From: a virus
Strand: one strand, 5' to 3'
Virus genome (UHGV): UHGV-0147584
Length of the DNA: 24,897 nucleotides
Shown here: piece after piece, positions 5,585 through 17,242 of the stretch
Layout: every line of letters starts with the position of its first letter
How positions within the stretch are numbered: position 1 is the first letter of the stretch
Translations under genes and position numbers: made by a program
The notes under the pieces: model-generated
What the model was told of the DNA's origin: nothing
What the model saw: the letters and a program-made list of their open reading frames with translations, nothing else
The model's database searches: none

Positions 5585-7939
5585 TTACATCTTACGGCGC
5601 TGTGCGTCTTCTACCGCCTGAGCAACTAACTTAGCATGACGTTTGATAGCATCCATAACCATCTTGTCTGAGCTATTAACGTTGCCGTTAATGTTCAAAG
5701 GCGCATTAACTTCAATCGGCTGAGAGTTACCACCGCCTGATTTTTGAGCAGATAAGAAGTCTTTCAAATCACCGTTAGTACGCTGATCAACTACTCGTTC
5801 ACCCTTATCAAGCAACCATGTACCCTCACGAGGGATATTATCGATACCATCATGAGCCATACCGCTAACGTTAGTCGATTTGATGTTTGCGATGTTCCCC
5901 ATGTTCTGAGAAACAGCCAATGCAGCAGCCGCGATTTTTTGACCTGTGGTTACGTTGGTCGGATCGTTCCATGCATCGGTAGCAGCCGTCCACATGTTCA
6001 CCGTCGCTTGTCCAATGGAGAATGCCTTATGAGCATTGAAAGCCATCTGCATAGCCTTTGTGTTTTCCTGCCCGAAGAGAGTCATTGCAGCAGCAAAACC
6101 GCCGTACATATCATCGGCTATTGACTGACGAGCATCAGCGTATTTCTTCTCAATTGCAGCCATCCGTTTTTGATGGTTTTCATTGAGTTTTTCTAATGCT
6201 TCCATCCGTTTAGCCGGAACGGTGATCCCATCAATCTTGAGTTTATCGGTTTTATAATCTTGTTCGGCTTCCGATTTCTCTTTATCGATTGCATTAAATT
6301 TAGCAAACGGATTATTTGAGTCTTGATAATCAAATCCACTGGTTAATTGATTGGATTTAAAACCATCCATTCCCTGTAAATGACTATCAATCTGAGAATA
6401 GTTTTGCTCGGTATCATTCACACGACGCATATATTCTTCGTAGGAGATAGCTTTACCATCAAGTAACCGTTTATGGCTTTCTAGCTCGTTGTCCCTGATT
6501 TGTTGCAAAACTGTTAAGGCATTCAGAGCATCAATCGGATCAGCACCCAACATCATTTTATAGATGTTTTCTGCGTTCTGATCTAACAGTTGCTGACGTT
6601 TAGCGGCTGCGTCTTGCTGAGAGATTAAGCCCATATCTAAAGCAGTGTCTAAATCTTTCAAGCTGGCTTCTAACTGCTTGTTTTGAGAAGCAATAGACGC
6701 GGCTGTCTGTCCTTGCAATTTAACATCAAGAGCATTCAGTCGCTTGATTGCATCCTCGCGTGCTTTCTGTGCTTTTTCTGCGGCTTCCTTAGCCTTTTTA
6801 GCTGCCTCTTCCGCTTTCTTCTTGGCTTCTTCTTGTTCTTTTTTCGATGGTCCGGTGACGCCTCCACCTTGACCCGTTGGGGTAAATCCGGTATCCGATT
6901 TATTTCCAGTGATAGTAATTACCGGATCACCGTTTTTATCACGGGTAACGCCTTCACTATCCACCCAACGATCAGGATAATTTGGTTTATTGTTGAAGCT
7001 GGCTTGTCCACCCGCTAGACCAGTAGAACTATAACCATGCTTGTTAATAAAACCACCGTTAGCCATAGCCATATTCTGGCGAGCTTTTTCAAACCTTTCA
7101 TTAAAAGTCTTTAATGCGTTGAATAAAGCGGTCTTTTCCCAATCTTTATCAAACCAGTTGTAAAGATTATTCATCCCTTCAACAACTGGATTTAGTGCAT
7201 TTGCAGCCATACCCTTTAAGTTATCGGTAAGGGTATCCATATTTTTAGAGAATTTATTATATTCTTCGGCTGTGTCATTGGTGATTTTAACAGTTTGCTG
7301 ATTAATGGCGTTTACAGCTTCCTGATAAGATCCGTATTTCTGCAATTCATCAGCCATATGACTTGAATCACTGGCTAACGATTCCATCATAAACTTAACA
7401 TCAGCGATAGACGCACCAGCCTTGCGCATATCATAGAAGACCTTGATCGCCGCTTTCATCCCGCCTTGTGGATCGTTCATAAACTCGGCATAATCTTTAA
7501 TCTTCAAACCTACACTTTCTAGGTCGTCTTCAATACCGCCACCGTTACGCCATGCATCAGCCAGCTTATCTAAGGTGTCTTTGTTAATATCACCAAATTT
7601 CTCAACGGTTAAGCCAGTACCGGAGAATTGCTTCTCTAATTTCTGGAGTGTTTCGACGGTTAAACCAGTTGCTTTTGAAACTTCGCTGTATTCCTTTACA
7701 TAATCACCGATGGCATTTGCAGCAGAAATAGCGCCAGCAGCCAAACCAACAAAACCACCAGCAGCCAAAGCAAGCGATCCACCAGTTCCGCGAAGGGTTC
7801 CACTTAAACTAGATAAACCACCAGACAAATCAAGATTCATTGCCCTTTCTGAAAGGTTATCAAGCATCTCTATCGCCTGATTGGTACTTCTCCTTAGACC
7901 GTCATTATCTCCTTCTATTGTTACTATATGTCTTGTCAT
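5585..7939 (-). CDS. tail tape measure protein
   Basis: 784-aa ORF directly downstream of the G/GT chaperone pair. Coiled-coil-like Ala/Lys/Glu-rich stretches (KKEQEEAKKKAEEAAKKAKEAAEKAQKARE) and Gly-rich N-terminal hydrophobic segments. Stop TAA. Confidence 0.8.
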   Translation of the reverse strand: MTRHIVTIEGDNDGLRRSTNQAIEMLDNLSERAMNLDLSGGLSSLSGTLRGTGGSLALAAGGFVGLAAGAISAANAIGDYVKEYSEVSKATGLTVETLQKLEKQFSGTGLTVEKFGDINKDTLDKLADAWRNGGGIEDDLESVGLKIKDYAEFMNDPQGGMKAAIKVFYDMRKAGASIADVKFMMESLASDSSHMADELQKYGSYQEAVNAINQQTVKITNDTAEEYNKFSKNMDTLTDNLKGMAANALNPVVEGMNNLYNWFDKDWEKTALFNALKTFNERFEKARQNMAMANGGFINKHGYSSTGLAGGQASFNNKPNYPDRWVDSEGVTRDKNGDPVITITGNKSDTGFTPTGQGGGVTGPSKKEQEEAKKKAEEAAKKAKEAAEKAQKAREDAIKRLNALDVKLQGQTAASIASQNKQLEASLKDLDTALDMGLISQQDAAAKRQQLLDQNAENIYKMMLGADPIDALNALTVLQQIRDNELESHKRLLDGKAISYEEYMRRVNDTEQNYSQIDSHLQGMDGFKSNQLTSGFDYQDSNNPFAKFNAIDKEKSEAEQDYKTDKLKIDGITVPAKRMEALEKLNENHQKRMAAIEKKYADARQSIADDMYGGFAAAMTLFGQENTKAMQMAFNAHKAFSIGQATVNMWTAATDAWNDPTNVTTGQKIAAAALAVSQNMGNIANIKSTNVSGMAHDGIDNIPREGTWLLDKGERVVDQRTNGDLKDFLSAQKSGGGNSQPIEVNAPLNINGNVNSSDKMVMDAIKRHAKLVAQAVEDAQRRKM

Positions 7940-7942
7940 AAA

Positions 7943-8317
7943 TTACCCCAATTGTCCGCTCTTGAGCTTTTGTAATAATGAAGCGTCGAAAAAACTATCA
8001 ACCAAAGCAGCGTTACGTTCTTCCTCTTTCTTACGAGCAATTTCTTTTATTTCTTCTTGCGTTTTAAATTGCTTGTCGTCCTTAATCATTCGGAATTGGT
8101 TAACATTGATTTTATTCAACCATTCACGAGTCATGTTAGGAGATGTAACGTGCATGTAATACATCGACTGTGCATGTCGCGCATCTTGAAACAGGGGGCT
8201 TTGTGGTTCAAGATATGTATCGAATATATGCAACGCCCAAAATAGCGTAATTGGCATATTATCCATCTCATCTTTACTCAAGCCCCGACGCATCATTTGC
8301 CGAAAATAAAAATTCAA
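7943..8317 (-). CDS. T-like portion of the tail assembly chaperone GT fusion (reached by -1 frameshift from G)
   Basis: This frame has no ATG start (ORF track begins at TTG) and is open upstream to 8341, overlapping the 3-prime end of the G-like ORF in the -1 frame; immediately precedes the tape measure gene. Confidence 0.6.
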   Translation of the reverse strand: MNFYFRQMMRRGLSKDEMDNMPITLFWALHIFDTYLEPQSPLFQDARHAQSMYYMHVTSPNMTREWLNKINVNQFRMIKDDKQFKTQEEIKEIARKKEEERNAALVDSFFDASLLQKLKSGQLG

Positions 8318-8325
8318 GAGCGGGT

Positions 8326-8634
8326 TTACTTTACCTCGTTTTCAATTACCGCCGCATCTTTCATCAATGATGCTTGAGCAACTAAGCCGATTAATTCGCT
8401 GCGGACGCTAGTATACAATGCCTTAACTTGTTCAATAGATTCAAATACTGGCTTACCGTCTTCATCTTCAATACAACGAAGAATAGAGCGTTCATCACGG
8501 TCTTTTTTATCGGTATTGAAAACATGTTCATTAAATTCTTGTACCGACATAGGGCGAGCATAGAACGTAAATCCGCCGAGGGTTAAAGATTCACGTTTCG
8601 GAGAAAGAGCTTTTAACATTTCATTCAGATTCAT
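8326..8634 (-). CDS. tail assembly chaperone (lambda gpG-like)
   Basis: 102-aa acidic protein directly upstream of the T-like frame and tape measure; classic G-T-TMP arrangement. Stop TAA. Confidence 0.65.
   Translation of the reverse strand: MNLNEMLKALSPKRESLTLGGFTFYARPMSVQEFNEHVFNTDKKDRDERSILRCIEDEDGKPVFESIEQVKALYTSVRSELIGLVAQASLMKDAAVIENEVK
8329..8335 (-). other. candidate -1 slippery heptamer GGUAAAG for G to GT frameshifting
   Basis: mRNA reads G GUA AAG UAA at the last two codons of G. The -1 frame (GGU AAA GUA...) is the open T frame. Lambda uses G GGA AAG at the equivalent place (recalled). Confidence 0.45.
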
Positions 8635-8676
8635 TCTTGTTTCCTCTTAAGTTAATTAGATATGTTTATTTAGAAT

Positions 8677-9183
8677 TTAAGAGATTTTCAAAGTCTGCTT
8701 AGTGCCAGTCTTCTTAATGTTATTGAGGAAAGCTGCCGGAGGATTGCTTAACCAATAGTAATGAAAACCACTTTGCATACTGTTATAAGGAACAGTGACA
8801 GCAGCACCACCCAAATTAACGGTTATATTCCCCGCTCTACCGTTCTGGAGATATACAGCCATAGTAGGAGTACCACCATTGAATTGACCAACGATAACGC
8901 CAATCAGACGGCCTACGCCCACGTTTTCGGGGTTCTCCATAGTTCCTTTACTGCGCATATCAGTTACAGGATAGTTTGAAGCAGTTACACCCCAATTATT
9001 ACCCAATGACGTAGACCACGCAGCAGTAGCTACAACCGTATCCATACCACGACCAGCCATTGCCGACATATTACGCGGAGCCGGAACTTTTAAAGCTGTT
9101 AATGCTTCTTTCATCCATCGCTTACCCGTCACTGATACAGCCGATGACCCGATCCAGCCGGGAACTTTAACGACATTTGCCAT
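8677..9183 (-). CDS. hypothetical virion-associated protein (Gly/Ala/Thr-rich)
   Basis: 168-aa ORF, ATG 9181-9183 preceded by GGAG; sits between a terminator and the G chaperone gene. No family recognised. Confidence 0.45.
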   Translation of the reverse strand: MANVVKVPGWIGSSAVSVTGKRWMKEALTALKVPAPRNMSAMAGRGMDTVVATAAWSTSLGNNWGVTASNYPVTDMRSKGTMENPENVGVGRLIGVIVGQFNGGTPTMAVYLQNGRAGNITVNLGGAAVTVPYNSMQSGFHYYWLSNPPAAFLNNIKKTGTKQTLKIS

Positions 9184-9198
9184 TTTGATTACTCCAAT

Positions 9199-9226
9199 AA
9201 AAAAGCCCCACCATTAAGGCAGGGCT
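9199..9226 (-). terminator. intrinsic terminator after the 158-aa gene and its extension
   Basis: Minus-strand RNA: GC-rich hairpin GCCCUGCC..GGUGGGGC followed by UUUUUU. Nearly identical to the terminator at 15123-15150. Confidence 0.7.
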
Positions 9227-9231
9227 TATAA

Positions 9232-9357
9232 TTAATCTTTAGCCTTGCGGCTTCGTTTAGCTGTGGCTTTCGCCGTAACTTCTTCTACTTCTGGAATCAC
9301 TACCGCTTCATGTTCCGGCTGTGGTTCAGGTTCCGGTAAAGGAAGTTCTTCGTTAGT
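9232..9357 (-). other. in-frame 41-codon extension behind the UGA stop of the 158-aa gene (candidate readthrough segment)
   Basis: Hand translation from 9357 down, in frame with the upstream ORF: TNEELPLPEPEPQPEHEAVVIPEVEEVTAKATAKRSRKAKD, then TAA at 9232-9234. Confidence 0.5.
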
Positions 9358-9834
9358 TCATCCGGCAGTGTTGAAGATTTCCTGTTTCAGCGGAGCACCA
9401 TCAACAGCAAAGGTAAATTCTTTAGTTACCACTTCTTCATCGCCACCGTTCATAGCAACTTTAGAAATAAAGCCGTTGAAAGCGGTGCGAATACCAGTCT
9501 GTTTTGCTGCGTCAACATAGTATTCAATTTTAATCTGAATACGGGTTCCATCTTCGGCAGCCTTAATAAGACGCTCATGCACGGTATCCCCGGGAATATA
9601 ATTAACGGTCAGAGTCAGATCAGGAACGTTCAGTTTACCTACCAGCTTGCGGTTATACTGAGAAGAGAAGGATTTAACTTCTACAGTACCGCGCTCGATA
9701 CCAGTTTCAGGGAAACCAGCACACTCTTTAATTTCTTCATAGCTTTCATGATCGAGAGCGGTGTTAGTGGTATCGGCGTGATAGAACATACTTACCAGAC
9801 CACCAGTAAAAATATCTTTGAATTGTTGAGACAT
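9358..9834 (-). CDS. putative tail tube-fold protein (candidate major tail protein)
   Basis: 158-aa ORF with SD AAGGGG. A segment (GKLNVPDLTLTVNYIPGD...LIKAAEDGT...IEY) is paralogous to the 277-aa protein at 13552-14385. Ends in TGA followed by an in-frame extension and terminator. Confidence 0.5.
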   Translation of the reverse strand: MSQQFKDIFTGGLVSMFYHADTTNTALDHESYEEIKECAGFPETGIERGTVEVKSFSSQYNRKLVGKLNVPDLTLTVNYIPGDTVHERLIKAAEDGTRIQIKIEYYVDAAKQTGIRTAFNGFISKVAMNGGDEEVVTKEFTFAVDGAPLKQEIFNTAG

Positions 9835-9864
9835 ATAATTACCCCTTAATTAAATTTGTTATAA

Positions 9865-9883
9865 CGGGGGAACTAGTCCCCCG
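9865..9883 (-). promoter_or_regulatory. GC hairpin between the fibre gene and the 158-aa gene
   Basis: cgggggA-acuag-Uccccg, 7-bp stem; on the minus strand it follows the fibre stop and precedes the SD of the next gene. Possible weak terminator or mRNA-stability element. Confidence 0.5.
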
Positions 9884-9890
9884 ACTTTTA

Positions 9891-12800
9891 TTATTTAGTT
9901 GCTTTCAGTTCGGCAATCTCTTTATGTAATGCTTCGATCTGCGCTTTATATTTGGCGTCCATTTCCTGCATAGCTTTGATGATTAAAGCATTGACAGCAG
10001 AGTTAGAAATAGTCTTGATTGCTTCTGGATGTTCTGGATCTTCGGTAGATTGAATACCTACTGCTTCCGGCAATACTTTTTCCAGATCCTGAGCAATAAT
10101 ACCTACTTCGCGTTTAATTACCGTGTCATCAGAAAGAGATTTAACTTTATCGTAGGTGTATACTTTCAGGGAGTTTACTTTCTCTAATGCACCGTCCTGT
10201 AATTCTTCCTTGTTAATTTTCAGACGAGAGTCAGAGCGAATGTAAACATCGTTAAAGCTACCGTTACGACCTGCCGTCATGTCACCGGATGCGTTAAAGT
10301 CAAAGACGGCATCATGAACATGGAGACGAACAAGAGCGTTACCGATAGTACCGCTAGGAACGTGTACACCCATTGCGGCGATATGATATTTACCTTGATG
10401 GGTTGCTTTCCAGATGTTATGAGCGGAATCGGTTGATTGCTGGCAGTCGACCTGAATACCGGAAGCACGATCACGCCAGCTAGCCCAACTACCACCAGCA
10501 ACGCTACCACGAATAAGACCATTACCGCCACCGGATACAGTGCCCGTTTCAAGGTGAATCATCTTACCGCCGAATTTCCAGACTTCGGCTTGTTTCTCAC
10601 CGCGCATACGCATAACACCAGCATCATCGCAGTACAACAGACCCAACTCTAAGCCGTTTGGATCTCTAAACCATAAATGCTTGTTACCAGTGCGCTTAAA
10701 CTCAATATCAGCACCATTCAGGGTGATATTGCCTCCAGTGTGGATTGCTTTAGGCTTAACAGTACCGTTAATAGCAAACTCGATTAATTCAGTACCAGGA
10801 CCGCCAGCACGTTGGGTATACCAGTGCCAACCGCTTTCATCAGCACATTCAAACACTTGTTTACGAGCATCAGCGCCCCATGCACGAATATTAAACGTAG
10901 AAGTTGCAGTACCTTTACCCCAGCGAATTTGTCCAGCAGCTTCTAAATCACCGAAGAATTTAGTTTTAATCGCACCAGTTGCTAAAGTACGTTCAGTGGT
11001 GAAGTGTGCACCTTTGCTATCGTCAAGCTGTAAGATATTATCACGAGCGTTATTGCTATCGCCCCAATGGTTAAACCGGAAGTAGTCGCGAGAATTTAAT
11101 CGACCAGCATCAAAGGTTAACATTCCTTTACCGACGTAAATATCACCAGCAAATCGAGCAGCACGGCTATCTCGTTCGAGAACTAATGCACCCTCGTTAC
11201 CATCACCACCTAAAGTAACTTTACCAGTCGTCAAATCGTAAATGAATGGTCGGTTGCCGTTCCAGCCACCAAATTTATCATTTTCGGCAGTTGAAAGAAG
11301 ATAAACTTTACCACCATCATTACGCCAGAATGCACCGTAGTTACCGTAAATCATACGGAATGCATCACTGTTAGCAGCTACATATTGTCCGTTTGAGTAA
11401 ACAATTTTTGTTTTACCAGTGGATAATGAAACTTGACCGTTCTCATCCAGTCTTACAGAGTTATTACCTTCCGTTAATTCATTTACTAACTGTACAGTGT
11501 TAGTAGTACCATCACCATAACCTAGATAACCCTGACGACGATTAGCACCAGAACGATAATCAAAGAATTCGATATAGTTACTTTGCCCGTCGCGGCGTTC
11601 CATTCTAATAGCGTTATTACCCTTAACAAAAAGGCGGTTTACAGTAACACCATTAAAATCAATTTTTAATTGATCCGCTGTATCAGTAACACCAGTAGCT
11701 AAACGATAGACACTACCTTCAACAACTTCATGCCAAATTGTTTCGGCTGATTTGCTACGGAATTTACGAAGATATTTTTTATTTGTATCAGTTGAGTTAT
11801 TCAGACTGATAATATCATATGTTCCTTGACCGTTATTATCGAACATCAACGTTCCGGCTTTGTTTTCGGTGTTGAACATCGTAATAACACGAGCATCAGT
11901 AACACCAACAGAAGGTTTAACGAGAGTTAATTCAGGAACATCATGTACTGTTAACGAAACATCACTAGTTTTACCATATTCGACAATAACGTTATCGGTA
12001 TAACGACCGTAGTTTACGTAAATGTCGTAGTTATCACCGGAAGTATTAACCGCAAATACTTGATGGACATTCAAAGAATTTCGACGATAAGCAGCAATAC
12101 TAACGCCTTTCGGGTTATTGTTACCGGAACGGATAACAATTTCTACAAAATCAACCTGATCATAGGAGTTAACGTTATAGCCGTTACCACCGAAGATACG
12201 AAGCATTACCATTCGACCATTCTGTGGGATCGTGGCGGTTGCAATCTTGAAGTATCCACGAGAAGCATCACCAGACGGAACAGACATTTTCACGTTCTTG
12301 ATGAACATCTGGTCAACTGCGGCCTTGCTATACACACCCAATTCATCAGGAGTCGGCTTATCACCTTCATGGTACATGCGATAGCTGAATCTCTTGTTAC
12401 CGTCCTTATCAAAGCCATAGGTTTTAACCTGAGATGAGCTAGACCCATAATGGAACTCAAAGCCGCGACCGTGTGCTTTACCGCCAGAATGAGGAATGTT
12501 AAGGATTAAGTTACCCCAGCCTTCGGCATTGTTCGGACGAAACGCACCAAAATAATCAAGGTTACGAGCACCAGCATCATCAAAATAGTTAGCGGTCTTG
12601 CTTAACAGATAGCCATGATGATAAGTGTTGGTATTCTTCTTGATGTAAAGAGCATCGTTGCTACCTTCAATACCATCAATTCGACGGTTAGCGGCTGCAA
12701 TCGCTGCATCTGCATCGGTCTTGTTTTTGTCTACCTTCGCGTTAATGGCGGTATGATTGCTATTAACAGTGTTGGTTAAGTTGGTGATCTTCGTATCAGC

Positions 12801-13478
12801 GTCTTTCTTGTTATTCGCTACCGTAGTTTCAATGGCTGATTTGTTAGCCGCAACGGTACTCGTTAAGCTGGAGATCTTAGAATCAGCATCAGACTTGTTA
12901 GCTGTAACGGTTTTGGTCATATTGCTAACATTGGTGTTGGTGGCATCAACACGGCTATTGATCGCGGTGTTATTGTCATTAACCGTAGTGGTTAAAGCTG
13001 AGATTTTATTGTCCGCGTCTCGTTTGTTATTCGCTACGGTAGTTTCAATAGCTGATTTGTTTGCCGCAACAGTGTTAGTTAAAGTGGTATGTTTGCTGTC
13101 AGCGTCGGTTTTATTTGCCGTAACTGTCTGGGTTAAGTTACTAACATTGGTGTTAGTAGCATCAATGCGCTTATTGGTTGCTGTATCTTTCGTGTTAATA
13201 GTGTTATTCAGTTCAGATTTAGCGGTAGCCAGAGCGTTAGCAGCTTCGGTTTTATTTGCCGCAATAACACGATCCGTGTTGGTTTTGTTTGTGTCTACTT
13301 TAGTGTTAAGTTCAGCGTGTTTTTCTGGGGAAACGCTGATTTGAACTACTGCGTTATTTTTGTCTTTCGTGTAAATTACGTGGTCGGCAAGGTTAATAGC
13401 TACCTCACCCTGTGCCAGTTGTTCCGGCGTTGGCTTTTTACCAGCCGTCTGTGTGCGTTTAAATTGGATTGATTGCAT
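9891..13478 (-). CDS. side / L-shaped tail fibre with C-terminal intramolecular chaperone (peptidase S74-like) domain
   Basis: 1195-aa ORF. Conserved fibre N-terminus (MQSIQFKRTQTAGKKPTPEQLAQGEVAINLADHVIYTKD), tandem shaft repeats, and a C-terminal ~114 aa beginning RSDSRLK that resembles the autocleaving chaperone of phage T5 pb1 / K1F endosialidase. Stop TAA. Confidence 0.8.
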   Translation of the reverse strand: MQSIQFKRTQTAGKKPTPEQLAQGEVAINLADHVIYTKDKNNAVVQISVSPEKHAELNTKVDTNKTNTDRVIAANKTEAANALATAKSELNNTINTKDTATNKRIDATNTNVSNLTQTVTANKTDADSKHTTLTNTVAANKSAIETTVANNKRDADNKISALTTTVNDNNTAINSRVDATNTNVSNMTKTVTANKSDADSKISSLTSTVAANKSAIETTVANNKKDADTKITNLTNTVNSNHTAINAKVDKNKTDADAAIAAANRRIDGIEGSNDALYIKKNTNTYHHGYLLSKTANYFDDAGARNLDYFGAFRPNNAEGWGNLILNIPHSGGKAHGRGFEFHYGSSSSQVKTYGFDKDGNKRFSYRMYHEGDKPTPDELGVYSKAAVDQMFIKNVKMSVPSGDASRGYFKIATATIPQNGRMVMLRIFGGNGYNVNSYDQVDFVEIVIRSGNNNPKGVSIAAYRRNSLNVHQVFAVNTSGDNYDIYVNYGRYTDNVIVEYGKTSDVSLTVHDVPELTLVKPSVGVTDARVITMFNTENKAGTLMFDNNGQGTYDIISLNNSTDTNKKYLRKFRSKSAETIWHEVVEGSVYRLATGVTDTADQLKIDFNGVTVNRLFVKGNNAIRMERRDGQSNYIEFFDYRSGANRRQGYLGYGDGTTNTVQLVNELTEGNNSVRLDENGQVSLSTGKTKIVYSNGQYVAANSDAFRMIYGNYGAFWRNDGGKVYLLSTAENDKFGGWNGNRPFIYDLTTGKVTLGGDGNEGALVLERDSRAARFAGDIYVGKGMLTFDAGRLNSRDYFRFNHWGDSNNARDNILQLDDSKGAHFTTERTLATGAIKTKFFGDLEAAGQIRWGKGTATSTFNIRAWGADARKQVFECADESGWHWYTQRAGGPGTELIEFAINGTVKPKAIHTGGNITLNGADIEFKRTGNKHLWFRDPNGLELGLLYCDDAGVMRMRGEKQAEVWKFGGKMIHLETGTVSGGGNGLIRGSVAGGSWASWRDRASGIQVDCQQSTDSAHNIWKATHQGKYHIAAMGVHVPSGTIGNALVRLHVHDAVFDFNASGDMTAGRNGSFNDVYIRSDSRLKINKEELQDGALEKVNSLKVYTYDKVKSLSDDTVIKREVGIIAQDLEKVLPEAVGIQSTEDPEHPEAIKTISNSAVNALIIKAMQEMDAKYKAQIEALHKEIAELKATK
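12735..13170 (-). repeat. two tandem ~216-bp (72-aa) repeats in the fibre shaft
   Basis: Protein repeat RIDATNTNVSNLTQTVTANKTDADSKHTTLTNTVAANKSAIETTVANNKRDADNKISALTTTV versus RVDATNTNVSNMTKTVTANKSDADSKISSLTSTVAANKSAIETTVANNKKDADTKITNLTNTV; DNA copies are near-identical over long stretches. Confidence 0.8.
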
Positions 13479-13506
13479 CTAATCACCTCACATAAAACAG
13501 GAATAA

Positions 13507-13524
13507 GGGAGGCGTTAACCTCCC
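13507..13524 (-). terminator. hairpin with U-rich tail between the 277-aa gene and the fibre gene
   Basis: GGGAGG-uuaacg-CCUCCC followed on the minus strand by UUAUUCCUGUUUUAUG, then the fibre SD GAGGTGA. Confidence 0.5.
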
Positions 13525-13551
13525 CGCGTCATGTTTTATTTAGAGAAGTGA

Positions 13552-14385
13552 TCAGTATTCCCCGAAGTCGATTCGGTCTGTCTTAGCAACCGCATTAATT
13601 TCGGCTGGCGTAGGCTTCTCATTTGTTGTATAGACTTTAATCCATTCAGATTTTCCGTTGTCCTGAATATTTCGTACCCGCAAACGTGGAGCACCGGAAG
13701 TATTACAAGTTAATTGCCATGCGCCATGCTCATTAGCTTGAAGATGAATTAACGATGTATCAGCACCATAAGGATTAGTGCTAGCCGTTCCTTTGTAGGT
13801 TACGAAGCGGTTTCCTGTCAGAGATTCACTATCAATAGGACCACTGAAAGGATTTACACCAGCGCCCAGACCAAAATCACCCTGACGTAAGATACGGCCT
13901 TCGGTAGCAATACCCCTTGCAAGAATCCCGCCATCTGGTTCTAGTTTGAATTCCATAGTTACAGCTTTGTTATCACCACCACGAGTTTTATGGCTAGTGA
14001 CATAAGCATCATAGATGACATAGTAACCAGTGTTAGCAGCACTATAGCCAGAGTTAACGACATAGAACATTCTAAAGCGTAAAGGTGTTTTATCCTCTAC
14101 GGCTTTCATCAACATTGCTTGGTGTTCATCGTCAAGAACACGGTTTACTGTGAGCGTAGTCGGTTCAAGTTTGCGATAGCCAGCCAGCTTACCAGTCGCA
14201 TCATGATCATACTCTTCGTAAGTCTCGATCTCGGTTGATTCTGTTAGCGTAGGAAAGGCTGCGATGTTCTCCATACCACTAAAGCTAGGATCGAAAAAGT
14301 CGACCTGATTGTCTAGCTGGTTAGAGATCGACACTTCAACATGCGATCCCGTAAAAATATCTAAGTTATCATGCGTAATATTCAT
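13552..14385 (-). CDS. tube-fold tail protein (candidate major tail protein, lambda gpV position)
   Basis: 277-aa ORF with SD AAGGGGTAAT. About 34% identity over an ungapped 41-residue stretch with the 158-aa protein (TLTVN..D....L.KA.ED.T......Y). Ends TGA, then 3 sense codons and TAA. Confidence 0.5.
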   Translation of the reverse strand: MNITHDNLDIFTGSHVEVSISNQLDNQVDFFDPSFSGMENIAAFPTLTESTEIETYEEYDHDATGKLAGYRKLEPTTLTVNRVLDDEHQAMLMKAVEDKTPLRFRMFYVVNSGYSAANTGYYVIYDAYVTSHKTRGGDNKAVTMEFKLEPDGGILARGIATEGRILRQGDFGLGAGVNPFSGPIDSESLTGNRFVTYKGTASTNPYGADTSLIHLQANEHGAWQLTCNTSGAPRLRVRNIQDNGKSEWIKVYTTNEKPTPAEINAVAKTDRIDFGEY

Positions 14386-14394
14386 TATTACCCC

Positions 14395-14796
14395 TTAAAA
14401 ACGCGCTAGATAAGAAAATTTAAGGCTAAGTGTCCCAACGATACCCCCATCACTAGAATCATCGTCATAATCGGTATTAGAAGCGACTGGAGTTATATCT
14501 GAAATGGAGAAGCCCAAATCTTTAAAACGTGGGTTATCTGGCTGAATCTGGATTATCTGGCAAATACCCTCATGAATTTTGGTTTCATGAATCTGAGAAT
14601 ATAATTGCATTTCGATAACGCATTCAGCTTGCATTGCATTACCACCACGGACCCTAGTGTAAGTCTCATTCATTCCGGTAATCCAACACACCACGTCATC
14701 GCTAAAACCAGTTTGAGTTTGTTCTACGTTTAAAGCCAGACCTAGATCTTGTTCGATAATATCCTGTAAAGCACGTTTAATCTTAAGACGTGGCAT
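14395..14796 (-). CDS. neck / tail-completion protein (hypothetical)
   Basis: ORF frame extends to 14823, but the ATG at 14794-14796 lies 4 nt after the upstream stop (coupled start). Position corresponds to lambda Z/U. Confidence 0.45.
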   Translation of the reverse strand: MPRLKIKRALQDIIEQDLGLALNVEQTQTGFSDDVVCWITGMNETYTRVRGGNAMQAECVIEMQLYSQIHETKIHEGICQIIQIQPDNPRFKDLGFSISDITPVASNTDYDDDSSDGGIVGTLSLKFSYLARF

Positions 14797-14800
14797 ATTA

Positions 14801-15091
14801 TTAACGGTAGCGAGCATGAGCACCCCCTGCTAAAGTGATAAAGCAATCACTGGTATTGTCACCATTGCGCTTAATGTATTGAACTTTGAAACGCTGATTT
14901 TCTACAATGACAATATCACCTTGCTTTAAATCTCCCTCACGACAGAATAAGAATTCTGATTCTGTCCATACCCCTTGCTCGTCGGTAGTGGTAATTTCAT
15001 GGTAAGCACGAATTGATTTACCACCTTCCACGACAAAAACAGGAGCACTTCGGAACATTCTTGATAATTGTGATTCGGTTAATTTGAACAT
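14801..15091 (-). CDS. head-tail joining / head completion protein (hypothetical)
   Basis: 96-aa ORF immediately after the capsid gene terminator, SD AAGGGGG; size and position match the FII-like head completion slot. Confidence 0.45.
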   Translation of the reverse strand: MFKLTESQLSRMFRSAPVFVVEGGKSIRAYHEITTTDEQGVWTESEFLFCREGDLKQGDIVIVENQRFKVQYIKRNGDNTSDCFITLAGGAHARYR

Positions 15092-15122
15092 AGTTACCCC
15101 CTTTTATGGAGTATTTACATAC

Positions 15123-15150
15123 AAAAAAGCCCCACCGTTAGGCAGGGCTA
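15123..15150 (-). terminator. intrinsic terminator after the capsid gene and its extension
   Basis: Minus-strand RNA: AGCCCUGCCUAACGGUGGGGC hairpin followed by UUUUUUGUAUGU. Confidence 0.7.
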
Positions 15151-15154
15151 ATTA

Positions 15155-15241
15155 TTATTTTGCTTTCGGTGGACGTCCCACCTTTTTAGCTGTGGCTTTC
15201 GCCGTAACTACCGGAATTTCTTCCGGCAATTCTTCGTTATT
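15155..15241 (-). other. in-frame 28-codon extension behind the UGA stop of the capsid gene (candidate readthrough segment)
   Basis: Hand translation from 15241 down, same frame as the capsid ORF: NNEELPEEIPVVTAKATAKKVGRPPKAK, then TAA at 15155-15157. Confidence 0.5.
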
Positions 15242-17242
15242 TCATTCAGCGGAGATGTGAAGAACTTTCAGAGCTTCCGGCTGTGCTACAACGTAGTCCA
15301 AATCTACAAAGATACGAGGCACTACCGCACCACGATCCCTATATGTAGTTAGATCCATGTCGAGTTCCAGACCTCCCCACTCACCGATAGTAATACCGGA
15401 GAAGTCACCCAGAACGATGTGGTCTGCCGGGATAACGCCAGAAGTAACTACTTCGTAACCAGCCAGTTTGCCGTTTTCGATGATATAACCGGAAACGCCG
15501 TTATCTTTCAGGGTAGATTCCAGTTCAGCAGCAGTTGCACCGCTCATCGCAAACTTGATCGCCTGAGCAGGAACGCCAGCGTCGGTCAGTGCTGCAATTT
15601 CTTTCAGGAAGTCTTTGTAAGAGAAAGCAGCTTTCTTGGTAACGCGGCTAGCGTCTACCAGTTGCTTAACCAGACCAGCCGGACCACGGTCGTTAGCTTT
15701 ATCAGACAGAATCAGTTGTTCCAGTTTGATGCGAACAGCTTTGTTAATGTGATCAGTGATCAGGGAAGCGATGCCGGGTACGGTTTTCAGCGACTGACGG
15801 CTGATCGGGTTGCCACCAGCAAAAGTTTTCGGAGACAGTTTCACGTTCGCAAATTCAGCTTTGCTTTCCGGTGCAGCACCGTTTTCATCAACGAAGCCGA
15901 AAGCGTCAACGCTGGATTTAGTCATTTTTGGAATAGCGGTCGGGGAGTTCAAGCCACTGTAAACAGTCACACCCAGACGACCCAGAACAGATTCCGGCAT
16001 CAGCATTTCGATGTAGGATTCAGTCATCAGTTTTTCGTCAGTGATAGCGGTCAGGTCGGCTTTGGTGTTACCAGCAGAAGCAGCACGCATAGCAGCAGCC
16101 GGAACGAATACAGAGCCACCGCGAGCAGCACGACCACGCTGCATTGCAGCACCAGCAGCCATAGCGGAATATTCAGCTTCGTTAGCACCCAGAGCAGCAC
16201 CATCTACCAGAGAGCGAATTACGTTGTTCAGGTCAAAAGTTTTTTCCATTTTAGAGTCCTTAATTTGTTCGTTATTACGTTGAGCATTGACGAGATTATT
16301 TAGTGCCTTAGTGCGGAATGCTTCCGGCGTCATGTCTTTAATTGCCAATGCGCGTTTCAATTCTTCGTCGTCAATATTTAGTTCCCGCGCGATTGCTCGG
16401 ATTTCTTCTTCGTCTTCTTCGGAACGTTCAGCCACTTCTTCGGTTTTTTCTTCTTCAACCGGAGCGGCTTCACGTTCTTCTTTTACTTCTTCTTCCCGAA
16501 CAGTTGAACTATCATCATCAACACTTTCAGGATGTTTAGCGTCTTTTCCGTCTTCGAGATTTTCATCTTCTTTATTCTCTTCAACTTGGCGCTCTTGAGT
16601 TTCTTCAACTTTCGGTTCTTTATTTTCTTCTACCGGAGTTTCTTCAACCTGAGCGGGTTCTTGTTCTTCTTTGATTTCTTCGATTTGTTCTTTAGTCATA
16701 TCGCGTTTAGCCCCCAAATTAACTGTGATAGTATTTAGAGAGCGATTTAAACCGACCGAATCATCGGCAGGGACCGTGACCCACGAAATTTCGTGAGGAA
16801 TCCATTTAGAAACAATGAGTTGCGATTTAGCGTAGTCGATGTGATATTCTTTAATGTCATAACCGACAGAAATTTTTTCCATCGTACCTTCAATGACTTT
16901 ATTACGAATATCATTAGCCAAAGTCCCATGCTTAGAGAATTTAACCAGAGCACGGCCTACGTTATCCGCATCGATTCGAGCGTTACAAACGACACCAATG
17001 TGATTATCGAAATTATGATTGAACAGCAACGGAGCGTTATTATTCAGACGAGACAGATCAACCGCTTCCGGTGTATGTACCAGAATTTCATCTAATACCA
17101 CCATTTCTTGATTTTGCTCATCCCAAAATTGGCGCTGATAAGGCTGTGTACTTGAGAAAGCAATTTCAAACTCGTATTGATCGTTATGCCCTTCGTTAAT
17201 AACTCCACCGTAACCGTTAAGATCGCGGCGAAATTTAAGCAT
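15242..17242 (-). CDS. prohead protease - acidic scaffold - major capsid protein (HK97 fold) encoded as one ORF
   Basis: 666 aa. N-terminal ~180 aa carry HK97-family prohead protease signatures (LLFNHNFDNHIG; KISVGY...HEISWVTVPADDSVG). Residues ~180-330 are an extremely acidic low-complexity linker. The C-terminal ~330 aa look like an HK97-fold capsid protein. SD AAGGTGA. Stop TGA. Confidence 0.75.
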   Translation of the reverse strand: MLKFRRDLNGYGGVINEGHNDQYEFEIAFSSTQPYQRQFWDEQNQEMVVLDEILVHTPEAVDLSRLNNNAPLLFNHNFDNHIGVVCNARIDADNVGRALVKFSKHGTLANDIRNKVIEGTMEKISVGYDIKEYHIDYAKSQLIVSKWIPHEISWVTVPADDSVGLNRSLNTITVNLGAKRDMTKEQIEEIKEEQEPAQVEETPVEENKEPKVEETQERQVEENKEDENLEDGKDAKHPESVDDDSSTVREEEVKEEREAAPVEEEKTEEVAERSEEDEEEIRAIARELNIDDEELKRALAIKDMTPEAFRTKALNNLVNAQRNNEQIKDSKMEKTFDLNNVIRSLVDGAALGANEAEYSAMAAGAAMQRGRAARGGSVFVPAAAMRAASAGNTKADLTAITDEKLMTESYIEMLMPESVLGRLGVTVYSGLNSPTAIPKMTKSSVDAFGFVDENGAAPESKAEFANVKLSPKTFAGGNPISRQSLKTVPGIASLITDHINKAVRIKLEQLILSDKANDRGPAGLVKQLVDASRVTKKAAFSYKDFLKEIAALTDAGVPAQAIKFAMSGATAAELESTLKDNGVSGYIIENGKLAGYEVVTSGVIPADHIVLGDFSGITIGEWGGLELDMDLTTYRDRGAVVPRIFVDLDYVVAQPEALKVLHISAE

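Follow-up and report, generated by a model that had tools for sequence, protein, structure and literature searches.

We analysed a stretch of DNA of 24,897 nucleotides (UHGV virus genome UHGV-0147584; the whole stretch is hereafter called the window) and focused on two of its proteins, namely TubeA (277 aa, positions 13552-14385) and TubeB (158 aa, positions 9358-9834), both encoded on the minus strand. Our results suggest that TubeB is the major tail tube protein and that TubeA, a paralogue of long standing, probably serves as the anchor of a side fibre, in which a tube-type domain is fused to a gp36-type joint. A first-pass annotation of the window had proposed that the two proteins are paralogues with a tube fold that flank a fibre gene; it overlooked the C-terminal 120 residues of TubeA, a fibre-type domain that ends in a gp36-type joint. 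The features that carry the argument are listed below.

13552-14385, minus strand: TubeA, 277 aa, chimera of a tube domain and a fibre connector, proposed side-fibre anchor (paralogue of TubeB; PHROG 158, E = 1.8e-9; codon adaptation index (CAI) 0.29)
13915-14385, minus strand: predicted tail-tube-fold domain of TubeA, residues 1-157 (AlphaFold2, Foldseek and phmmer)
13555-13914, minus strand: fibre-type domain of TubeA, residues 158-277 (weak PHROG matches and conserved elements)
13555-13767, minus strand: gp36-type joint, TubeA residues 207-277, ending IDFGEY (BLASTP to RB49 gp36)
9891-13478, minus strand: side fibre of gp37 type, 1195 aa (80% nucleotide identity to Krischvirus gp37; Pfam Gp34_trimer and Peptidase_S74)
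13326-13478, minus strand: gp37-type N-terminal joint, fibre residues 1-51 (43% identical to residues 4-54 of RB49 gp37)
about 12612-13325, minus strand: repeat or coiled-coil insert, fibre residues ~52-289 (repeat seen by eye)
9894-12611, minus strand: RB49 gp37-like part with a C-terminal S74 chaperone domain, fibre residues 290-1195 (protein and DNA identity)
9358-9834, minus strand: TubeB, 158 aa, predicted major tail tube protein (PHROG 158, E = 9.5e-21; Phage_TTP_11, 27.8 bits; CAI 0.52)

Homology between TubeA and TubeB

Both open reading frames (ORFs) were confirmed, with the fibre gene (1195 aa, 9891-13478) between them. The similarity noted earlier was an ungapped block of 41 residues from TLTVN with an identity of ~34%, in which we counted 14 identical residues out of 41. 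The homology reaches far beyond this block and spans all of TubeB: BLASTP aligned residues 9-159 of TubeA with residues 7-153 of TubeB (29% identity, E = 3e-14, 157 columns), and hhalign aligned the TubeA family with the TubeB family over 157 columns (probability 99.1%, E = 7.5e-19). A pairwise alignment tool thus gave a significant score, the structural matches of the TubeA N-terminal domain were tube proteins and not unrelated folds (see below), and the proposal of paralogous tube-fold proteins holds. Both proteins matched PHROG 158, 'major tail protein' (E = 1.8e-9 for TubeA and 9.5e-21 for TubeB), a family without a curated cut-off; the tube fold of TubeB rests on this homology. For Pfam Phage_TTP_11, TubeB scored 27.8 bits against a cut-off of 28.4, and TubeA had no Pfam match.

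An N-terminal DIFxG motif is kept in the TubeA and TubeB families alike, which fits a shared mode of contact between rings, and a strong AAGGGG Shine-Dalgarno sequence precedes each gene. In a neighbour-joining tree, TubeA and TubeB formed separate monophyletic clades with broadly matching sub-groupings, and therefore the duplication is old and the pair has been inherited together. Identity between lineages was 31-44% for TubeA and 39-51% for TubeB, and TubeA evolves faster than TubeB.

TubeB as the major tail tube protein

The first-pass annotation expected one of the two copies to be the major tail tube protein and held that the sequence could not decide between them. We found that the evidence does point to one, as TubeB is very probably the ordinary building block of the tube because of five independent lines of evidence, namely synteny, relatives that lack the fibre, codon adaptation, terminators and the size variation of TubeA. 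The features used here in addition are as follows.

8326-8634, minus strand: tail assembly chaperone (TAC; weak match to Pfam Phage_TAC_13 and PHROG 344)
5585-7939, minus strand: tape measure protein (TMP) gene, ORF of 784 aa that comes after the chaperone gene
9232-9357, minus strand: in-frame extension of 41 codons after the TubeB TGA, followed by TAA, putative read-through tail (comparison of variants)
9203-9227, minus strand: strong intrinsic-terminator-like hairpin after the TubeB extension (stem nearly identical to that of the post-capsid hairpin)
15128-15149, minus strand: strong terminator hairpin after the capsid gene (near-identical to the hairpin after the TubeB extension)
13506-13525, minus strand: weaker terminator-like hairpin after TubeA

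The TubeB orthologue adjoins the chaperone and tape measure genes in Hafnia prophages and in the structural module of Escherichia phage DCP80 (a record that looks chimeric and is counted here merely as one more copy of this module), and in the window the gp38-like gene alone separates TubeB from the chaperone gene. In seven IMG/VR loci (L051-L057), the capsid gene is followed by genes for proteins of 94 and 149 aa and then by those of the tube, the chaperone and the tape measure; their single tube protein, whose gene abuts that of the chaperone, is 41-45% identical to TubeB, and neither TubeA nor the fibre is present. Vibrio phage V6Aob likewise has one TubeB-type gene without TubeA or fibre. 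In the neighbour-joining tree, the single tube genes of these fibre-less phages fell with the TubeB clade. Accordingly, it is TubeB, and not TubeA, that takes the place ahead of the chaperone and tape measure genes and is the sole tube gene in simpler relatives. A profile search of genome contigs with TubeB found nothing.

We computed CAI values using the E. coli weights of Sharp and Li, entered by hand. The values for TubeB and TubeA, respectively, were 0.52 and 0.29 in the window, 0.51 and 0.29 in E. coli ETEC4090, 0.46 and 0.28 in a Hafnia prophage, and 0.52 and 0.32 in DCP80. Capsid domains ranged from 0.46 to 0.69 and other structural genes from 0.20 to 0.41, and the value of TubeB (0.52) was the highest among whole structural genes. 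Near-identical hairpins (AGCCCTGCCT..GGTGGGGCT followed by a T-run) occur solely after the capsid gene and after the TubeB extension; the shared hairpin looks like an attenuator reused behind the two structural genes that would be the most highly expressed. Insofar as such expression proxies can tell, TubeB would be abundant and TubeA minor. Finally, the length of the TubeA orthologues varies between 277 and 699 aa, which is implausible for a subunit present in about 170 copies.

The two genes also end as described previously: TubeA has a TGA, three codons and then a TAA, and the TGA of TubeB is followed by 41 in-frame codons. A TGA with an in-frame extension of 36-41 codons was found in 18 distinct sequence variants from ~29 E. 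coli-type loci, which differ by in-frame indels and in which the extension always follows TGA, whereas relatives without the extension terminate in TAA. In one metagenomic variant (P0081), Trp (TGG) replaces the stop codon and the extension is fused in frame. The extension consists of a PE-rich linker and a basic tail (..AKATAKRSRKAKD). This pattern points to programmed UGA read-through, by which a longer form of the tube subunit would be made in minor amounts, as with SPP1 gp17.1*.

The N-terminal domain of TubeA

Residues 1-157 of TubeA were modelled by AlphaFold2 with a predicted local distance difference test (pLDDT) of 80-95 in the core. The top Foldseek matches of this model in the PDB were the tube proteins of lambda (gpV), 80alpha and YDC107 (E~3e-7) and a monocin tube, with E-values ranging from 3e-7 to 1e-5, and the domain is predicted to have the tail-tube fold. 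A fold search of BFVD returned generic tube proteins only.

A phmmer search with this domain against 1.84 billion representative proteins found 46 relatives, mostly of 278-1563 aa, with the tube domain at residues ~3-156. Beyond the tube domain, all nine relatives scanned matched tail-fibre PHROGs. For example, P0124 (1204 aa) ends in the joint motif ..VIDAGTF, and P0144 and P0137 are complete fibres that terminate in an S74 chaperone. The TubeA domain is 37-38% identical to that of P0124, compared with 27-29% to TubeB of its own genome. Because these relatives are mostly the N-termini of fibres, this branch of the tube family typically constitutes the N-terminal anchor of a fibre.

In a tblastn search of 50,697 phage records with TubeA-type N-terminal domains, DCP80 was the only match. 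This record (L001/L060, PQ671644.1) joins a siphovirus structural module at 1-22.5 kb to T4-like replication genes, with rIIA and spackle present in duplicate, and is classed in Tevenvirinae; it looks chimeric or mis-assembled beyond about 23 kb.

The C-terminal domain of TubeA and the gp36-type joint

Residues 158-277 are kept in all orthologues, with a glycine-rich GDFGxGAG segment, GNRF, WQ and a terminal ..DFG..; the terminal D-F-G motif was invariant in all 20 orthologues aligned. Pfam gave no meaningful match for whole TubeA or for this domain alone, and a BLASTP comparison of the domain with the neighbouring fibre was not significant. The domain alone had ten weak PHROG matches, eight of which concerned tail fibre or tail proteins. 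More information came from the longer orthologues: in a Hafnia orthologue of 446 aa, the C-terminus matched PHROG 16472 (E = 2e-20) and the N-terminus PHROG 158, and orthologue P0078 matched PHROG 16472 (E = 7e-20) while retaining the N-terminal PHROG 158 match.

PHROG 16472 has the length of a 496-aa 'tail fiber protein' of RB49, which is the equivalent of gp36 because its gene lies between those of gp35 and gp37. Using BLASTP, residues 207-277 of TubeA aligned with residues 426-496 of RB49 gp36 to the final residue (E = 7e-5; KPTPAEINAVAKTDRIDFGEY versus KPTPADVGAVPLNAVIDFGTF), and P0078 aligned with residues 229-496 (E = 1e-17). The C-terminus of T4 gp36 reads ..VQDFGYY. The C-end of TubeA is thus homologous to that of RB49 gp36 up to the last residue. 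The N-terminal region of gp36, which lies beside gp35 at the hinge, was not matched; the alignment covers the C-end, and residues 1-157 of TubeA form the tube domain. As a tube domain stands in place of the gp36 N-terminal region, TubeA is a chimera and not an orthologue of gp36.

The downstream fibre

The gene after TubeA, across an intergenic gap of 73 nt that holds no unassigned gene, encodes a fibre that begins MQSIQFKRTQTAGKKPTPEQLAQGEVAINLADHVIYTKD, which is the gp37 N-terminus (E = 8e-17 against T4 gp37, whose start reads IQFKR..GELAINL.D). Since the parallel T4-type fibres have an N-proximal polarity, the C-end of gp36 abuts the N-end of gp37. The distal rod of the T4 fibre is composed of (gp36)3-(gp37)3, in which gp36 lies by the hinge and gp37 forms the remainder (PMC5537660; bioRxiv 10.64898/2026.03.06.709160). 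With a gp36-type C-end on TubeA and a gp37-type N-end on the fibre, the two halves of the gp36-gp37 joint are therefore reproduced in this locus.

The body of the fibre (residues 290-1195) showed 72% amino-acid identity to RB49 gp37 over 913 aligned positions and ~80% DNA identity to Krischvirus gp37. The rest of the 7.4-kb stretch searched (7900-15300) matched no phage record at the DNA level. We read this as a recent horizontal exchange of the receptor-binding part of the fibre between a lytic, Krischvirus-type (RB49-like) myovirus and a temperate siphovirus. Between the joint and the body, the insert (52-289) contains, by eye, two copies of a Thr/Asn/Ala-rich repeat of ~72 aa (ATNTNVSNLTQTVTANKTDADSK...); Tandem Repeats Finder reported nothing for the DNA of this N-terminal repeat region.

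Conservation of the TubeA-fibre pair

We examined the 41 related loci that had enough upstream flank to be informative. In all 41, a TubeA orthologue (277-699 aa) was directly followed by a fibre with a gp37-type N-terminus, at a spacing of 13-83 nt or with a short overlap, and the consensus of the TubeA C-end was ..[I/L][D/S][F/A]G.[F/Y/E]. One locus (L046) contains a chain of three proteins, in which a 340-aa TubeA is followed by proteins of 847 aa and 470 aa; by eye, the C-ends ..ISAGKF and ..TFDMGTY are each followed by a gp37-type start. Neither TubeA nor the fibre was present in eight loci (L051-L057 and Vibrio phage V6Aob), which have one TubeB-type gene each. In the Salmonella/E. coli-type IMG/VR loci (L030-L041), the fibre gene and TubeB are separated by three small ORFs (~98, 101 and 100 aa).

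A proposed fibre anchor and its alternatives

We infer ring assembly, tail position, copy number, trimerisation and physical binding as follows. The N-terminal domains of TubeA would form a hexameric ring, of low copy number and collinear with the TubeB tube; we favour one such ring, placed beside the distal tail protein like those of T5 p140 and T4 gp54. Judging from the 784-aa tape measure and the number of discs per tape measure length in lambda, the tube would have about 29 rings, one of them made of TubeA. The C-terminal domains, on their glycine-rich linker, would associate in threes into gp36-like stubs, which would dock the gp37-type N-terminus of the 1195-aa fibre, so that a non-contractile tail would carry a gp36-gp37 joint. 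With six TubeA chains, a ring would have two trimeric stubs and hence two fibres. Among the roles offered in the first-pass annotation, that of a tube initiator or special ring comes closest to this proposal, although the function that would define TubeA is the anchoring of the fibre.

Several points weigh against this proposal. The CAI is an indirect proxy for abundance and was computed here from weights entered by hand. The loci are phylogenetically clustered, and the co-occurrence of 41 to 8 represents a handful of independent lineages. A BLASTP comparison of the TubeA C-terminal domain with T4 gp36 was not significant, and the link to gp36 runs through RB49-type gp36, by way of the longer orthologues, and through the terminal motif. 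For the C-terminal domain, the AlphaFold2 monomer had a pLDDT of <50 and we make no claim about its fold; a profile search of the PDB with the TubeA family gave nothing above the threshold, and the collar spike of phage XM1 (E = 0.72) is a hint only. A hexamer that feeds trimeric fibres requires a symmetry mismatch. Moreover, TubeA lies upstream of TubeB by the terminator gene, and this gene order could equally put the ring at the neck.

In this last case, the TubeA ring would be head-proximal, just under the terminator, and would carry neck fibres or whiskers and not distal side fibres. The order terminator, TubeA, fibre, TubeB agrees with such a location, as does the weak match of the C-terminal profile to a collar spike, which is a neck structure; however, the known rings of tube paralogues (T5 p140 and T4 gp54) are distal, and a receptor-binding fibre of gp37/gp38 type would be most useful near the tip. 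We therefore regard a neck position as unlikely.

Alternatively, TubeA could polymerise together with TubeB as a second subunit of the tube, or form many rings, to give a tube with fibre stubs at intervals. The common tube fold and the DIFxG motif conserved in both families are compatible with this idea, and many tube proteins carry a C-terminal decoration domain, for example lambda gpV with its immunoglobulin-like (Ig) domain and SPP1 gp17.1*. However, TubeA and TubeB are only 20-29% identical, which makes interchangeable interfaces unlikely, and the CAI of TubeA is low in four loci. In addition, its C-terminal domain appears to be a joint for a 1195-aa fibre rather than a globular decoration, and relatives bear up to ~1400 extra fibre residues on the same N-terminal domain. 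A mixed tube thus seems quite improbable.

The inverse assignment, with TubeA as the major tube protein and TubeB as a minor initiator or adaptor, would agree with the gpV-like layout of TubeA (a tube domain plus a C-terminal domain) and with the strong AAGGGG Shine-Dalgarno sequence on both genes. The CAI values and the fibre-less relatives, which retain the TubeB type alone directly before the chaperone and tape measure genes, nevertheless led us to reject it, and the terminators also favour TubeB. The lengths of the TubeA orthologues (277-699 aa) and of the N-domain relatives (up to 1563 aa), together with a conserved read-through tail on TubeB, as in major tube proteins like SPP1 gp17.1*, make this assignment very hard to maintain.

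The remaining option of the first-pass annotation, a tail terminator, concerns the neighbouring gene.

14395-14823, minus strand: predicted tail terminator with a gpU fold, 140-142 aa (AlphaFold2, pLDDT 79; Foldseek)

Tail terminators share a tube-like fold, and TubeA is placed just after the head-completion genes, but it is the 142-aa neighbour whose predicted fold matched lambda gpU, T5 p142 and the T1 terminator, as well as the SaPI1 neck, the monocin cap and the pyocin R2 collar (Foldseek, E from 1e-5 to 1e-3), so that the phage already has a dedicated terminator, and with tube proteins as the best structural matches of TubeA a terminator role for it is scarcely credible.

Gene order and source of the window

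Every gene in the window is on the minus strand, and together they constitute the late operon of a temperate, lambda/HK97-like siphovirus that resides in E. coli as a prophage. In order of transcription, the genes encode a large terminase of gpA type, a 165-aa protein, a lambda-family portal, a 666-aa protease-capsid fusion, a 96-aa protein (weakly lambda FII-like), the 142-aa protein, TubeA, the 1195-aa fibre, TubeB, a gp38-like adhesin, the tail assembly chaperone, a 124-aa protein, the 784-aa tape measure protein, a distal tail protein (weak match to the pb9 B-domain), two small proteins and a 1258-aa gpJ-like tip protein. In the fusion protein (15242-17242, minus strand), an acidic linker connects a prohead protease (Peptidase_S78) to a capsid domain of HK97 type, and the CAI is 0.35 in the N-terminal half and 0.69 in the capsid half. 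In the last 95 nt ahead of the chaperone stop codon we saw no slippery site for a chaperone frameshift, and we make no claim in this respect. A promoter scan gave fewer matches than shuffled sequence and was hence uninformative.

8677-9183, minus strand: 168-aa adhesin of gp38-like type, its gene inserted after TubeB and ahead of that of the chaperone (PHROG 1121 tail fibre adhesin, E = 1e-35; Pfam Gp38_N, E = 4e-15)

This adhesin gene stands apart from the fibre gene. The fibre contains an intramolecular chaperone domain (S74) of its own, and the same holds for RB49, in whose record gp37 is not followed by a gp38 gene. The adhesin gene is absent from the Hafnia prophages and from the DCP80 module.

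Of 5426 complete E. coli genomes, 55 contain prophages with ~84-87% DNA identity to the region; in these genomes a serine recombinase gene lies nearby, and RefSeq labels TubeB as 'phage tail tube protein' and TubeA as 'hypothetical protein'. One carrier is E. coli ETEC4090, with the prophage at 3.14-3.17 Mb of NZ_CP122620. Orthologues of both proteins were found in Salmonella, Shigella, Providencia, Edwardsiella, Proteus and Hafnia.

Implications and comparison with known systems

Structures of side-fibre attachment on non-contractile tails come from few siphoviruses of Gram-negative hosts, for example the T5 collar and the Ur-lambda Stf collar. The locus analysed here suggests a third anchoring solution, in which a paralogue of the tube ring covalently bears a T-even fibre joint. 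It provides a testable model of fibre attachment for this family of prophages, which is common among E. coli, Salmonella, Hafnia, Proteus, Edwardsiella and Providencia, and would explain how the receptor-binding fibre of a myovirus can be transplanted onto a siphovirus, which is relevant to host-range evolution and to the engineering of phage and tailocin fibres. The 'hypothetical protein' entries of the TubeA family could become fibre-anchoring tube-like proteins, and the 158-aa family could be annotated as the major tube protein.

The fusions of tube and fibre domains (278-1563 aa) may also represent a widespread, undescribed class of siphovirus anchors, in which an in-line hexameric ring would adapt the six-fold symmetry of the tube to trimeric fibres. 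Through the gp36/gp37-type joint, temperate siphoviruses could then take up distal, receptor-binding half-fibres of lytic T4-like myoviruses, as with the present fibre; we consider the chances of this broader view to be evenly balanced. In the literature covered by our search, no earlier description of tube-domain/fibre fusions or of DCP80 was found, which does not by itself prove novelty.

In its proposed function, TubeA resembles the T5 p140/p132 system. TubeA and p140 both are extra paralogues of a major tube protein, and p140 forms one in-line ring above the distal tail protein that holds the p132 collar and anchors the side fibres; the authors of that study noted that fibre anchoring must differ in other siphoviruses (PMC10038345). 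T5 has a separate Ig-like collar (p132) between the ring and the L-shaped fibres of pb1, whereas the connector is covalently fused in TubeA. In addition, p140 has two tube domains per chain, is a trimer and is encoded among baseplate genes, whereas TubeA has one such domain and its gene lies upstream of the major tube gene.

The likeness to the T4-type gp36/gp37 joint lies in the C-end of TubeA, which is homologous to the C-end of RB49 gp36 and has a ..DFGxY/F terminus as in T4 gp36, and in the fibre with its gp37 N-terminus, the two genes being likewise adjacent. In contrast to T4-type fibres, a tube domain replaces the gp36 part beside gp35, the window contains no homologues of gp34 or gp35, and the tail is non-contractile.

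In Ur-lambda, twelve Stf collar domains surround the gpV/gpM junction and are gathered in threes, through linkers of ~10 residues, into four trimeric fibres (PMC12617516). The proposed TubeA ring would resemble this arrangement in that monomeric anchor domains form a ring at the junction of tube and tip and are linked in threes into trimeric side fibres. However, the Stf collar lies outside the tube, has 12 copies and lacks the tube fold, whereas TubeA is proposed to lie within the tube stack.

Lambda gpV, with its Ig domain, and SPP1 gp17.1*, with a fibronectin type III (FN3) domain added by frameshift, also combine a tube domain with an outward C-terminal module, and the putative read-through of the TubeB TGA has a counterpart in the recoding that yields gp17.1*. 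These additions are globular decorations on a major subunit, whereas TubeA would carry the joint of a long fibre on a minor paralogue. T4 gp54 and gp48 similarly provide extra rings of tube fold between the baseplate hub and the major tube (cited in PMC10038345); they are not known to bear a fibre-binding module, and their proposed role is to initiate the assembly of tube and sheath. TubeA is a full member of neither the T5 p140/p132 system nor the gp36 family: it is without the N-terminal region of gp36, and ring and connector are fused in a single chain.

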